From Planctomycetota bacterium (GTDB lineage Bacteria > Planctomycetota > J058 > JAJDCP01), in assembly GCA_029260765.1 (NCBI GenBank), contig JAJDCP010000004.1, forward strand, positions 1 to 29,939: a stretch of 29,939 bases of DNA. The letters run 5' to 3'. Shown in pieces: positions 14,577 through 19,903 of this stretch. The notes under the pieces are model-generated. The model made no database searches. It was not told the origin of the DNA and saw only the letters and a program-made list of their open reading frames with translations. The first letter of the stretch is position 1. Each line of letters starts with the position of its first letter. Made by a program: the position numbers and the translations under genes.

Positions 14577-15656
14577 ATGCCAGATCCCAAACCCAGGTCA
14601 GAGGTCATCGAGACGACCCGCGAAGGCGTGCGCAACGGCACCCGCATCCACTCGGGCCGCAACACCACCATCATCGTGCGCCGCGACGGCTTCGTGCGTT
14701 GTCGCTGGTCGACCCTGCAGGGACGGGTCGGAGACCAGGTCGAGCTGATCGCCGAGCTCGCTCCTGGCGCGACCATCAGCACGGCGACCTTCCGCATCTT
14801 CGAGCGCGACAAGGCGACCGAGGACGACGTGGTGACCGTACTGCCAGGACAGGTGCAGGGACAGAACATGCGTGCCACCTGGCGGGTCCAGAACATCGCG
14901 GAGGAGGCGGCGGAGCGCGCCGAGGGCAACAGCGACGGCCGGCGCTGGGAGTTGCCGGAGTTCTACTTCAGGGTCGAAGCCGGTGAAAAACGCGCCGATT
15001 CGGGCCGCGCAGACAACCGGCTGCTCAAGATCGTCGACCGGGTCGACCGGCCGGTGACCGGCTTCGACGGCAAGCCGCTGCCCGGGGCATCCTACGAGAT
15101 GGAGCTGGCCGATGGCAGCACGCGGCGCGGCACCCTCGACGAGCGGAGCCGCGTGCGGGAGGAGGAGGTACCCGCCGGCCGGTTCAAGCTGCGGGTCGAG
15201 CTGCCCAATCCCCTGCGCACCAGGCGACCGGCCAACCTGCTCGACAAGCTGAAACCCCTGCGCCCGATGCGTTGGGGGAGGCCCGACGCGGCCATCCGGC
15301 GGGCGGCTCTCGGCAAGCAACCCCTGAGGTTGCGGGGGCTGGGCTTCGACAGGCCCTTTGCGCTCAGCGGCGCGACGGTGCGGCTCTGGGCACAGCTGGA
15401 CGGGGGCGGATCGGAGGGGCTCAGCTTCCTCATCAAGAAGAAGGGCTCCGAGGCTACCGTCGCGACAGTGCCCGCCAGCCTGCGCGACTCGAAGCTGAGT
15501 GGCCAGTGGGTGGTCAGTGGGGCTTCGGGTGAGACGGCGTCGGGCCATCCTTGTGCGGACTTCGTTGTCCAGCTCGAGGTCGCCGGGCAACGTCTCGTTC
15601 CCGACAAAGCTTGCCGGGCCATGAGGGCCTACACCATCGAAAACAGGGAGTCCTAG
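14577..15656 (+). CDS. Hypothetical protein, upstream partner of the giant hemopexin-repeat protein
   Basis: ATG at 14577 (MPDPKPRSEVIETTREG...) follows GGAGGAG; the ORF opens at 14523. A ~360-aa product with mixed beta-rich-looking composition (TATFRIFERDKATEDDVVTVLPGQVQGQNMRATWRVQ; GRFKLRVELPNP). I recognise no family. Its stop (15654-15656) lies 2 nt before the next gene's ATG. An AT-rich tract (caacaaaaaaaagatccactttctctgata, 14486-14515) lies upstream. Confidence 0.55.
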   Translation: MPDPKPRSEVIETTREGVRNGTRIHSGRNTTIIVRRDGFVRCRWSTLQGRVGDQVELIAELAPGATISTATFRIFERDKATEDDVVTVLPGQVQGQNMRATWRVQNIAEEAAERAEGNSDGRRWELPEFYFRVEAGEKRADSGRADNRLLKIVDRVDRPVTGFDGKPLPGASYEMELADGSTRRGTLDERSRVREEEVPAGRFKLRVELPNPLRTRRPANLLDKLKPLRPMRWGRPDAAIRRAALGKQPLRLRGLGFDRPFALSGATVRLWAQLDGGGSEGLSFLIKKKGSEATVATVPASLRDSKLSGQWVVSGASGETASGHPCADFVVQLEVAGQRLVPDKACRAMRAYTIENRES

Positions 15657-15658
15657 TC

Positions 15659-18600: not shown

Positions 18601-19903
18601 CCGCGCCGGCATCATGGATGCCATCACGGCGGCCCGCAACCAGCTCAGCAACGACTCTGCGGGGGCCGAAGTCGACCAGAAGCGCCGGCTCGAGCTCGTC
18701 ACGCTGCACAGCCTGGTCGACAGCGCCTGGGATCCCCGCTCGATGACCAACCACCTGTGGTTGCAGGGTGGCAGCACCTCCAACCCGCCCCGGCCCTTCG
18801 AGGTGATGTGCCGCATGATGCGCTTCGGCTGGATCGACATGAACCGCTCCCGGGAGTTCTACGTCTCGCCCGATTCCGACGGGCAGTATCGGATCCACCT
18901 TTATTGGGACCAGGCGGTCGCCAACCTGCGCATCTCCTTCTGGGACCGTGACGCCGGCACCCGCGACGACCGCATCACCATCAGCCAGAACCACACGACC
19001 TACAACGCCTACAGCATCCAGCTGACCAACTACACCTGGACCTCCACCACCACGACCATGCGCGAGCTTCGCAACGGGCTGCTGGCCCAGCGCGAGAGCG
19101 GCGATCGGGTGCAGCTGAAGATCTGCGTGGAGGACCTGGACCGCGGCGATGAGGAATGGTATCCGGACTACCACTACGAGTGCCTGCTCGACCCGACCAC
19201 CGGCAACCTGGCATCCGCCGACCGCCGCCTCGACTCCGAGGGACTCAGCCAGACCCAGCGCAACCTCAATGGCCCCTTCGACGCGGCTCTCAAGACCTCG
19301 GGCAACCGGGTCTACTTCTTCAAGGGCAGCCGCTGCGCCTTGGTGGACATCGTGACCCGGCGTATGGTGGCGGGTTATCCGAAGGCCATCAGCCAGGAGT
19401 TTCCGGGTTTGTGGAGCTCGGACATCGACGCGGCCATCGACTGGGACGACCGGGCCTACTTCTTCAAGGGCCACCAATACTCCCGCATGGAGCGCACCAA
19501 CGGCCGCTGGCAGGTCAGCACCGTCAGAAGCTACCCCAGGAACATCACGAGCTTCCACAGCACCTGGCCCGATGCCTTCGACAGAGACCTCTCTGCCGCC
19601 GTCAACTGGAACAACGGCTACGCCTACTTCTTCAAAGGCTCCCAGTACATCAAGTGGAACACCCGCAGCGATGAGCGCGTCGGAGGGCTCCGCTCCATCA
19701 ACAGCACCAACTGGCCTCAGCTCGAGGCGCCTCTCGACGCGGCCTTCCACTGCGAGGCCGGGCACGTCGAGCAGGGCGGCACCCCGTGCGTGGCCTATTT
19801 CTTCAAGGGCGAGCAGGTCCAACGCTACATCGACGTCGGGGGCGAGCGGGCGATGCACCAGGTCGATATCGCCGGCCAGTGGGGTCAAGAGCCGGTAGAC
19901 TGA
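15659..19903 (+). CDS. Giant (~1414-aa) protein: N-terminal Thr/Ser/Pro tandem repeat, large central domain of unknown function, four C-terminal hemopexin-like repeats
   Basis: ATG at 15659, ~10 nt after GGGAG. The N-terminus reads MPDKPDATTTSTSTTTTTPSSGRPTTPSSSG(S/P)TTPSSSG x5, then PGPKPEPGG...GEGEGEG. No classical signal peptide is present. The C-terminus has four YFFKG-type hemopexin blades (RVYFFKGSRCALVD, RAYFFKGHQYSRME, YAYFFKGSQYIKWN, VAYFFKGEQVQRYID). The ~1000 central residues match no family I recognise. There is no HExxH motif, so it is not an MMP-type protease. Confidence 0.7.
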   Translation: MPDKPDATTTSTSTTTTTPSSGRPTTPSSSGSTTPSSSGPTTPSSSGSTTPSSSGSTTPSTSPGPKPEPGGTSPPPASGEGAATAPGTTPSNPPRASGEGEGTAADSTTTPAPTPGSGEGEGEGERRDVGNATRLLTEEDLAGETRDRFLTGVLEDPAQVNNMRFYFRWVRRWFPNVTRACIRDLNRGLQLARGQSSELDSNWKPMLQSIKQGMDKLVEGFGCNQGTAADWTVVLDGLGTLLAGVYDKLQEAAVDENDAPVHDERGMRVNEKEAFHQSLARTIRAIVTSPARLAVFLWNGSGEEPPAPEEQPGDSARLPMMNQVAEGFIEFTIGGLKLFSGCRKLNQNLTTGWGDLFGAFGRIVKGIIILVRAGTTRNVQRAPHSPEHQEPGDHPNATAVWWATVIGNVGGWIDQLIKTINAFMVWIPLDLRGDWNINGADDNLSWKMEIDDPELSAQTTRRDGSLVYQGKLYAIGEVNGRFYKEQRATVEFFSAEGLNYSLNWTGTGATGQLSSPFDAQFARGQLGSLSLQGSSFAMTARQVGWLTTNNRRHNLFFGRGFALTKGFDFMAALGKLLWKSVTLTPEWKREAENRLQDLSESLTDILPAWFREHVEIGIHNGAGRPDLTAGRWYAHLGFDFAEKVTLAADWDIGLLFDFDPSDLQGREASPIVPASCSVTLRHPRVGGGIRLGWSRWDQTREGDGGSKGGLEDSIPFLKDLVNEYVGGENWNLLEPVLKGNLKADPPEIPRVELPVVIFVNEVGGDANASPPEPAYPLRSKFSLTFILEGEAILSYFPAMRACMMAWDVGYAAGTLLRELLLQSETYQAMEDGFQNWWADLMYDTDITNQVTEFYGNSLVKWVNSGYINHHERYLLDQKSAHYIWSHVHARPACADVHDGFRRGVLEEIEEDLEKIERNDLNGVTVNSAAEAHLYKYLWGSSQQTKPSLQTELRRSMEAGTISRPRYLIYLEWLKELNEPVDRAGIMDAITAARNQLSNDSAGAEVDQKRRLELVTLHSLVDSAWDPRSMTNHLWLQGGSTSNPPRPFEVMCRMMRFGWIDMNRSREFYVSPDSDGQYRIHLYWDQAVANLRISFWDRDAGTRDDRITISQNHTTYNAYSIQLTNYTWTSTTTTMRELRNGLLAQRESGDRVQLKICVEDLDRGDEEWYPDYHYECLLDPTTGNLASADRRLDSEGLSQTQRNLNGPFDAALKTSGNRVYFFKGSRCALVDIVTRRMVAGYPKAISQEFPGLWSSDIDAAIDWDDRAYFFKGHQYSRMERTNGRWQVSTVRSYPRNITSFHSTWPDAFDRDLSAAVNWNNGYAYFFKGSQYIKWNTRSDERVGGLRSINSTNWPQLEAPLDAAFHCEAGHVEQGGTPCVAYFFKGEQVQRYIDVGGERAMHQVDIAGQWGQEPVD

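Follow-up and report, generated by a model that had tools for sequence, protein, structure and literature searches.

VgrG proteins may end in transthyretin-like (TTR-like) domains, each of which specifically binds its cognate, genetically linked effector and keeps it stable; exchanging these domains redirects the cargo (PMC6684961). With regard to extracellular contractile injection systems (eCISs), the hemopexin domain (PF00045) is listed amongst the eukaryote-like domains of associated toxins (PMC8213781), and a hemopexin toxin encoded in a contractile injection system (CIS) cluster of Photorhabdus was co-purified with particles of Afp (bioRxiv 10.1101/2023.11.13.566157). A gene pair that bears comparison with these proteins is found in a Planctomycetota bacterium, at positions 14577–19903 of contig JAJDCP010000004.1 (assembly GCA_029260765.1), the full 29,939 nt of which are termed the window herein. 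Gene A (14577–15656, + strand) encodes 359 aa, has a Shine–Dalgarno-like GGAGGAG just 5′ of its ATG and ends in a TAG stop codon (15654–15656). Gene B (15659–19903, + strand) is a continuous open reading frame (ORF) of 1414 aa, with AGGGAG 8 nt 5′ of its ATG, and encodes a putative cargo effector. The stop codon of A and the ATG of B are separated by 2 nt. A preliminary description of this DNA had reported two genes at this spacing with products of 360 and ~1414 aa; the spacing and the larger product are confirmed, and the smaller product is of 359 aa.

We propose that A is a free-standing TTR-like spike adaptor or chaperone, and that B is a new cargo effector of a CIS, a reading to which we assign a probability of about one in two. 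It is built on the conservation of the gene pair, on the homology of A to the C-termini of VgrG-related proteins, and on the same-strand linkage of the pair to VgrG genes in relatives.

Conservation of the gene pair and its link to spike proteins

An A-type module is encoded upstream of the B homologue in all 11 loci for which DNA is available, and in 10 of these it is a separate gene, directly upstream and on the same strand, with spacings that range from a 4 nt overlap to a 96 nt gap. The upstream genes (205–530 aa; loci L001, L003, L004, L005, L007, L008, L009, L012 and L016) show 22–33 % identity to A, with BLASTP E-values of 1e-10 to 5e-35 and E-values of 1e-6 to 1e-169 against an A-family hidden Markov model (HMM). 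In the eleventh locus (L010/L011) the module is fused to a VgrG-related protein encoded two genes upstream of B, and in a twelfth, without DNA, an unannotated gene of 371 aa lies 15 nt upstream of the B homologue. As an A-type module is present in every locus with DNA, the notion that the two genes never co-occur fails decisively, and the two-gene module put forward in the preliminary description stands. Two or more paralogous modules can be found in one genome, as is the case for P0005 and P0010 in GCA_030428695.1.

Protein A is predicted to be all-beta, and its partner family has three common elements: an N-terminal beta domain, a central domain with a recurrent motif and a C-terminal immunoglobulin-like (Ig-like) domain. 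In the window, the N-terminal beta domain and a putative carboxypeptidase-regulatory/TTR-like domain together occupy aa ~39–210 (14691–15206, + strand), and the central motif reads G.PLPGA.Y.L.LADGS.R.G.L...SR..EE.VP.G.F.L, against a partner consensus of G.P.PGA.Y...LADG..R.G.L...SR..EEDVPPG.F. The C-terminal Ig-like domain (aa ~250–350; 15324–15626, + strand) is kept in the partner genes of all loci. A word-indexed search with A returned the protein itself only, scans of A against Pfam, NCBIfam, PADLOC and PHROGs were empty, as were those of its homologues against Pfam and NCBIfam, and A is the sole protein of its own 90 % cluster.

Sequences homologous to A are also located at the C-termini of VgrG-related proteins of the gp27-half type, and this in two loci, L005 and L010/L011. 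Residues ~39–210 of A align to aa 458–618 of a VgrG-related fusion in L005 (20868–22802; BLASTP E 3e-16) and to aa 744–918 of a LysM protein from the same locus (13341–16130; E 7e-14), with the A-family HMM returning independent E-values of 2e-22 and 1.6e-22 for the two, respectively, and of 1e-35 for the fusion in L010. Within the latter, aa 372–591 span both the central and the Ig-like domain of A. The L005 fusion additionally receives a Pfam call for CarboxypepD_reg (PF13620) at aa 385–432 (32.8 bits, cut-off 32.3; E 8.9e-8), which is overlapped by the alignment of A-family HMM positions 160–214 to aa 383–437 of this protein. PF13620, a member of the TTR-like sandwich group, has no direct match in A of the window and reaches E 0.069 in the stand-alone partner of L004. 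Across the ~190 kb of DNA fetched, the A-family HMM matches only B partners, a single tandem-domain protein in L016, and VgrG-related and LysM proteins at their C-terminal ends; because its matches are confined to these classes, the A module is not a generic decoration. The tandem-domain protein (L016 14227–15048; 273 aa) consists of three successive copies of the A central domain.

The pair itself is found in a same-strand string with a canonical type VI secretion system (T6SS) VgrG or VgrG-related spike gene in three of the eight well-flanked loci, for which the probability is ~4e-4 under an assumed, generous background of 2 %. In the locus represented by L012/13/14, a TssI/VgrG gene follows B after 63 nt (TIGR03361, 603 bits; cut-off 186). 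The order in L010/L011 is hub/A fusion, PG_binding_1 protein and B, with gaps of 12 and 6 nt, and the N-terminal 345 residues of the 739 aa fusion (L010 1218–3437) match both the NCBIfam ‘VgrG-related protein’ model and Pfam Phage_GPD. L005 harbours, successively, A, B, a 929 aa LysM protein with an A-type C-terminus, a 146 aa gene, a 676 aa gene and VgrG_rel, the last of which encodes 576 aa with matches to NF033848 (323 bits; cut-off 275), Phage_GPD and Phage_base_V. Thereafter comes a second gp27-half/A-type fusion and, directly behind it, a Zn-dependent phospholipase-C-like gene, this label being a weak precomputed Pfam match for which 157 aa of the product gave none on scanning.

Some of these strings display further features. 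Region 13341–23276 of L005, which is identical in L015, contains three successive arrangements of an A-type module followed by a cargo-sized gene, with the full VgrG-related gene in between. The PG_binding_1 protein situated between the hub/A fusion and the B homologue (L010 3450–5054; L011 2969–4573) is of 534 aa and possesses N-terminal Cys/His motifs that appear amidase-like by eye, with no family match; it may be a second, cell-wall-targeting cargo. Genes for TPM_phosphatase proteins that are 50 % identical to each other adjoin the B homologue in both L016 (13159–14169) and L010 (8369–9403).

Composition and rarity of protein B

As judged by sequence inspection and a hydropathy scan only, B lacks a Sec or Tat signal and a twin-arginine motif, and is free of hydrophobic segments up to the earliest such stretch at aa 353–375. 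The HExxH motif is absent throughout, and Pfam gives no match to Peptidase_M10; in both the lack of signal and the lack of HExxH, the preliminary description was correct. The N-terminus begins MPDKPDATTTSTS, and the first 150 residues (15659–16108, + strand) form a disordered, T/S/P/G/E-rich region in which 69 % of positions are T, S, P or G (T 21 %, S 18 %, P 16 %, G 14 %). Within it lies a tandem repeat with a period of 24 nt and 5.6 copies (15705–15839; Tandem Repeats Finder), comprising four exact TTPSSSG[SP] units and degenerate flanking ones, so that the low-complexity repeat reported earlier is real. It is not, however, a conserved property, as relatives in the family alignment bear other low-complexity or charged N-termini.

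The far end of the protein is formed by a hemopexin-like domain (aa 1196–1414; 19244–19900, + strand). Pfam Hemopexin (PF00045) scores 69.6 bits on B (cut-off 21.3; E 2.2e-19), with three stretches passing individually, and the YFFKG motif occurs four times, at aa 1219, 1267, 1323 and 1380, spaced by 48–57 aa and each preceded by a DAA-type motif. When the whole of B is compared with PDB sequences, the only matches are to hemopexin folds, namely MMP-14 (E 9.5e-9) and hemopexin (4e-8), which score best, vitronectin and plant lectins, and the matches cover three to four blades of MMP-14, vitronectin and MMP-12. Judged by its sequence, the C-terminus is a genuine four-blade hemopexin propeller, as had been claimed. 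What does not hold is the earlier designation of B as a giant hemopexin-repeat protein: PF00045 is absent from the other 15 representatives of the family, and no relative extends past the preceding beta domain, save for an unrelated extension in P0010. As the propeller is limited to the window member, and the mucin-like repeat is likewise not conserved, the name describes an accessory and not the family.

The family is defined by the region between these two termini. Its core (aa 157–1034; 16127–18760, + strand) shows 31 % identity to P0002 and is followed by a C-terminal beta domain (aa ~1050–1190; 18806–19228, + strand) that aligns with the C-termini of P0004–P0017 and for which beta strands are predicted at low confidence. 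This domain of ~150 aa is present in all aligned members but P0002. An alignment of 14 sequences reveals a common plan of a variable N-terminus, a helical region in which two helices are moderately hydrophobic, a beta-rich middle with the motif FP.DL.G.W, a conserved helix and a helical domain. The core of B correspondingly has an N-terminal helical bundle with the two hydrophobic helices and two beta-rich domains; the most conserved helix of the family carries FP.(L/M)RAC(L/M).AW..G(W/Y)A.GT.LR, and the helical domain bears an LY.YLWG motif. The conserved hydrophobic helices make membrane activity our leading guess for what B may do.

Relatives are exceedingly few. A word-indexed search of 5.8 billion proteins returned, besides B itself, a single relative, P0002, a stand-alone protein of 841 aa from the same sequencing run as the window, which is 31 % identical over aa 157–1024 of B (E 5e-93). 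An exhaustive HMMER search with the B–P0002 pair retrieved 16 representatives from 1.84 billion cluster representatives, and these have lengths of 830–1365 aa, with the exception of two short fragments. B is likewise the sole member of its own 90 % cluster. Pattern scans of 185,579 species genomes (GTDB set) yielded no relative, although the B-family alignment is too divergent to yield patterns; a scan of metagenome contigs recovered only a duplicate of L005, and scans of viral contigs were empty.

No described family accounts for this body. Pfam, NCBIfam, PADLOC and PHROGs have no match for aa 1–1195 of B, no credible Pfam domain is present in nine family members scanned, and comparison of the family with Pfam, NCBIfam, PHROG, PADLOC and PDB leaves the core (aa ~157–1190) unmatched. 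Profile searches of the A-partner and B-family alignments against PDB sequences produced matches to designed pentatricopeptide repeat proteins, actin and S6, all of which were rejected as spurious. An AlphaFold2 model of B from a two-sequence alignment was unusable (predicted local distance difference test, pLDDT, 38), whilst that from 14 sequences was of moderate confidence (pLDDT 67; predicted template modelling score 0.41). The central region without a recognisable family, noted in the preliminary description, is thus confirmed by each of these libraries, and at the level of sequence the body of B (~900–1000 aa; aa ~157–1190) is a very rare, undescribed family.

Proposed delivery of protein B and alternative explanations

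If A is indeed a spike adaptor and B its cargo, the two genes would form an operon for the loader and the cargo of a T6SS or related VgrG-type spike. A would be a detached version of the beta-sandwich, TTR-like modules that end some VgrG-related proteins, and its roles would be to hold B, to keep it stable and to attach it to the spike or hub. B, synthesised in the cytoplasm with no signal peptide, would be fired out along with the spike, and the hemopexin propeller could then serve to bind or target the recipient, which might be a eukaryotic cell. Such a reading would account for the missing signal peptide, the tight gene coupling, the paralogous copies and the variable termini; paralogues in one genome combined with variable termini are typical of polymorphic effectors. 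The lack of a conserved downstream immunity gene, together with the eukaryote-type domain, leans weakly towards a non-bacterial target. The preliminary description had called the export route unclear: the absence of a signal holds, and the homology of A to VgrG-related C-termini now suggests a CIS as a concrete candidate. Its secretion machinery was to be sought on the wider contig, and here the result is negative, as no injection-system gene is present on the 29,939 bp contig. Taken as a whole, the earlier interpretation is partly supported, and its proposals of heme or glycan binding and of an adhesin role are guesses.

A number of observations weigh against delivery by a CIS. Not only does the window contig (29.9 kb) lack VgrG, Hcp, PAAR, sheath and any other injection-system gene, there are also none within 10 kb in L004, L007, L009 and L016; orphan effector modules are common in T6SS genomes. 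The two A-type fusions (L005 20868–22802 and L010 1218–3437) match only positions ~3–350 of the 547-position VgrG_rel model. They thus hold the gp27/gpD-like half without the Phage_base_V needle, which makes them hubs and not complete spikes, and the departure of such needle-less hubs from the textbook ‘evolved VgrG’ is the main unexplained point. The TTR-like assignment of A is putative and transitive only, and A with six of its homologues has no match to DUF4123, DUF1795 or DUF2169 even at E ≤ 10. On the side of B, effector markers and toxin domains (MIX, FIX, RIX, PAAR, Rhs, lipase, amidase, nuclease) are absent as far as library models cover them, and fold searches with the pLDDT 67 model gave no informative match. 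There is no conserved downstream immunity-like gene, as what follows B changes from locus to locus, from AHSA1 (opposite strand) in the window to BipA, a kinase, an esterase, TPM_phosphatase, a LysM protein or VgrG in the others. Finally, as the family is tiny, all statistics rest on ~11 loci, mostly from metagenomes. With regard to an eCIS in particular, the disordered N-terminus expected of its cargo is present in B, and eCIS core genes were not seen in the window; the 10 kb flank of L005 harbours LysM and VgrG_rel genes, but no eCIS sheath, tube or ATPase, none of which is in the window either.

Other explanations of the pair have accordingly to be considered. A and B might be a toxin and its protector or chaperone unrelated to contractile systems, with B leaving the cell via outer-membrane vesicles, lysis or an unknown exporter, A neutralising or folding it, and the A-like modules of VgrG proteins being generic decorations. 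Five of the eight well-flanked loci, the window included, have no spike gene nearby, which would fit with this, as would the charges of the two proteins (A basic, net +12; B acidic, net −42), which are compatible with tight binding of any kind, and the conserved hydrophobic helices of B, as found in many self-inserting toxins. A role as generic decoration is, however, contradicted by the restricted A-family HMM matches within ~190 kb, and two independent VgrG-related fusions and three spike linkages also count against a toxin pair of this kind, as does the fact that immunity genes are usually small and located downstream of the toxin gene. We view it as unlikely, yet not far-fetched. Less credence still is given to a non-toxic role of B in cell structure, at the surface or in the cytoskeleton, for example as an adhesin or matrix component, with A as its assembly partner and the propeller binding an environmental ligand (heme, glycan or protein). 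B does lack a catalytic or toxin domain, hemopexin folds serve MMPs, hemopexin and plant lectins as binding modules, the mucin-like repeat at the N-terminus is reminiscent of the linkers of surface proteins, and a gene for a vault-like protein is found within ~6–11 kb of the module in both the window and L004. Nevertheless, a signal peptide, a cell-wall or outer-membrane anchor and signatures of type IX, type I or type V secretion are all lacking from B; neither the propeller nor the N-terminal repeat is conserved in the family; and the vault proximity is limited to two related genomes, with the VgrG linkage left unexplained.

That the long ORF of B is an artefact of assembly or annotation, for example a hemopexin gene joined to an unrelated one, is by contrast very improbable. 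Suspicion might be raised by the metagenome-type contig, by the occurrence of hemopexin in no other family member and by a break in a Logan contig inside the tandem repeat. The reading frame is, however, uninterrupted, and neither a stop codon nor a shift of frame separates the family beta domain from the hemopexin domain. The contig has a GC content of 66 %, and in a screen of third-position GC content (GC3) across stop-to-stop frames, adjacent + strand frames at 0.83 and 0.88 hold genes A and B. GC3 is 0.86 for gene A, 0.84–0.92 in each part of gene B and 0.895 in its hemopexin part; as both ORFs are at the level expected for real genes, and as this is uniform through the hemopexin part, a chimeric origin is unlikely. 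L002, a contig from an independent Logan assembly (run SRR15505515), is 100 % identical to window positions 13931–15793, reproducing gene A and the A–B junction, and its break falls at the N-terminal repeat and not at the hemopexin junction. As L002 ends inside the repeat, the TTPSSSGS copy number of the deposited contig (15705–15839) may be inexact.

A bolder version of the proposal would have the A modules, the needle-less gp27-like hub–A fusions and the B family constitute an undescribed delivery device or loading route, distinct from canonical T6SS adaptors, with B a membrane-inserting toxin of new fold whose interchangeable C-terminal tip sets the target; we hold this to be a long shot. 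Should the adaptor–cargo reading prove true in its simpler form, it would add a large effector family for which Pfam, NCBIfam, PDB and viral structure sets offer no detectable relative, and one which, owing to its rarity (16 clusters in 1.84 billion proteins), would escape domain-based effector screens. It would also provide a free-standing adaptor that either descends from or gave rise to the C-terminal cargo-binding modules of the spike itself, and hence a snapshot of interconversion between ‘evolved’ VgrGs and separate adaptors. As for the hemopexin tip, it would bring a second case, beyond Photorhabdus-type toxins, of an animal-type binding domain on injected bacterial proteins, and would hint at a eukaryotic target. 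The general logic of such a pair would be unsurprising to a specialist, and its key functional claims are ones that we infer.

With regard to the surroundings of the pair, the ~2.3 kb directly upstream of gene A (12110–14450) have no strong coding signal. They contain an ORF for an FG-GAP fragment (13170–13784) and a short minus-strand ORF (12592–12780) that looks integrase-like by eye, with no Pfam match, and are probably decayed genes or the remnant of a mobile element. Further upstream (9506–12109, + strand) is an 867 aa ORF without family match, which has a single hydrophobic segment and an N-terminus that is disordered and very basic; its annotated start overlaps the end of a methylmalonyl-CoA mutase gene by 89 nt, so its true start is uncertain, and it is not homologous to the 870 aa gene found at a similar position in L004. 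The vault-like gene (462–3290, − strand) encodes 942 aa with the eukaryotic major vault protein domains MVP_shoulder (4.5e-14), Vault_3 (1.6e-7) and Vault_4 (6.5e-4), and adjoins DUF480 and a Ser/Thr kinase. A 78 % identical orthologue with the same neighbours is present in GCA_030428695.1 (L004 1410–4184). A functional link between this gene and the A–B module was considered and rejected, as the two are near one another only in the window and L004, where the block is 74–78 % identical and the B proteins 22 %. Downstream of the pair are a molybdopterin oxidoreductase operon (22228–26416, − strand; 933 aa catalytic subunit, 4Fe-4S subunit and TorD/NarJ-type chaperone) and a T2SSE/PilB-type ATPase (27891–29753, − strand), both of housekeeping appearance and with no sign of a link to A–B. 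Kinase, FHA, PEGA and TPR-kinase genes are also part of the gene content. Neither the Rfam nor the tRNA scan gave a match in the window, and a promoter and terminator scan was uninformative.

Comparison with known systems

A close parallel to the A–B pair is provided by pairs of VgrG-borne TTR domains and their effectors, such as VgrG1–Tle1 of enteroaggregative Escherichia coli and VgrG4b–PldA and VgrG5–PldB of Pseudomonas aeruginosa. In both systems, a large cargo gene without a signal peptide comes directly after the sequence that encodes the module, and the domains of A recur as C-terminal extensions of VgrG-related proteins, one of which is called as CarboxypepD_reg. In contrast to the VgrG domains, A of the window is a separate protein of 359 aa with two further beta domains and no significant direct Pfam match. 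The fused A-type versions, moreover, sit on gp27-half proteins without a gp5 needle.

A similar division of likeness and difference is seen for the T6SS adaptors of the DUF4123 (Tap-1/TEC), DUF1795 (Eag) and DUF2169 types. As with A, their genes are located immediately upstream of, and translationally coupled to, that of a large cargo effector, and lie in vgrG islands in some genomes. A has no sequence relationship to any of them, is predicted to be all-beta and is instead related to the C-terminal modules of the spike itself.

For protein B, comparison can be made with the hemopexin toxins of Photorhabdus, i.e. the photopexins and PluDJC_08520 from the CIS cluster, which likewise have PF00045 repeats and no classical signal peptide, and are linked to a CIS. 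Photopexins are small and consist of little other than hemopexin repeats, which sets them apart from B, whose propeller is the last 220 aa of a 1414 aa protein with an unrelated body of a new family. The spike linkage of the A–B family is, furthermore, to T6SS VgrG or VgrG-related proteins and not to a demonstrated eCIS. Outside of bacteria, matrix metalloproteinases (MMPs), hemopexin and vitronectin have in common with B the four-blade repeat with DAA...YFFKG motifs. Unlike the MMPs, B has no HExxH, Peptidase_M10 or signal peptide, and the propeller is found here in a bacterial, cytoplasmic context.

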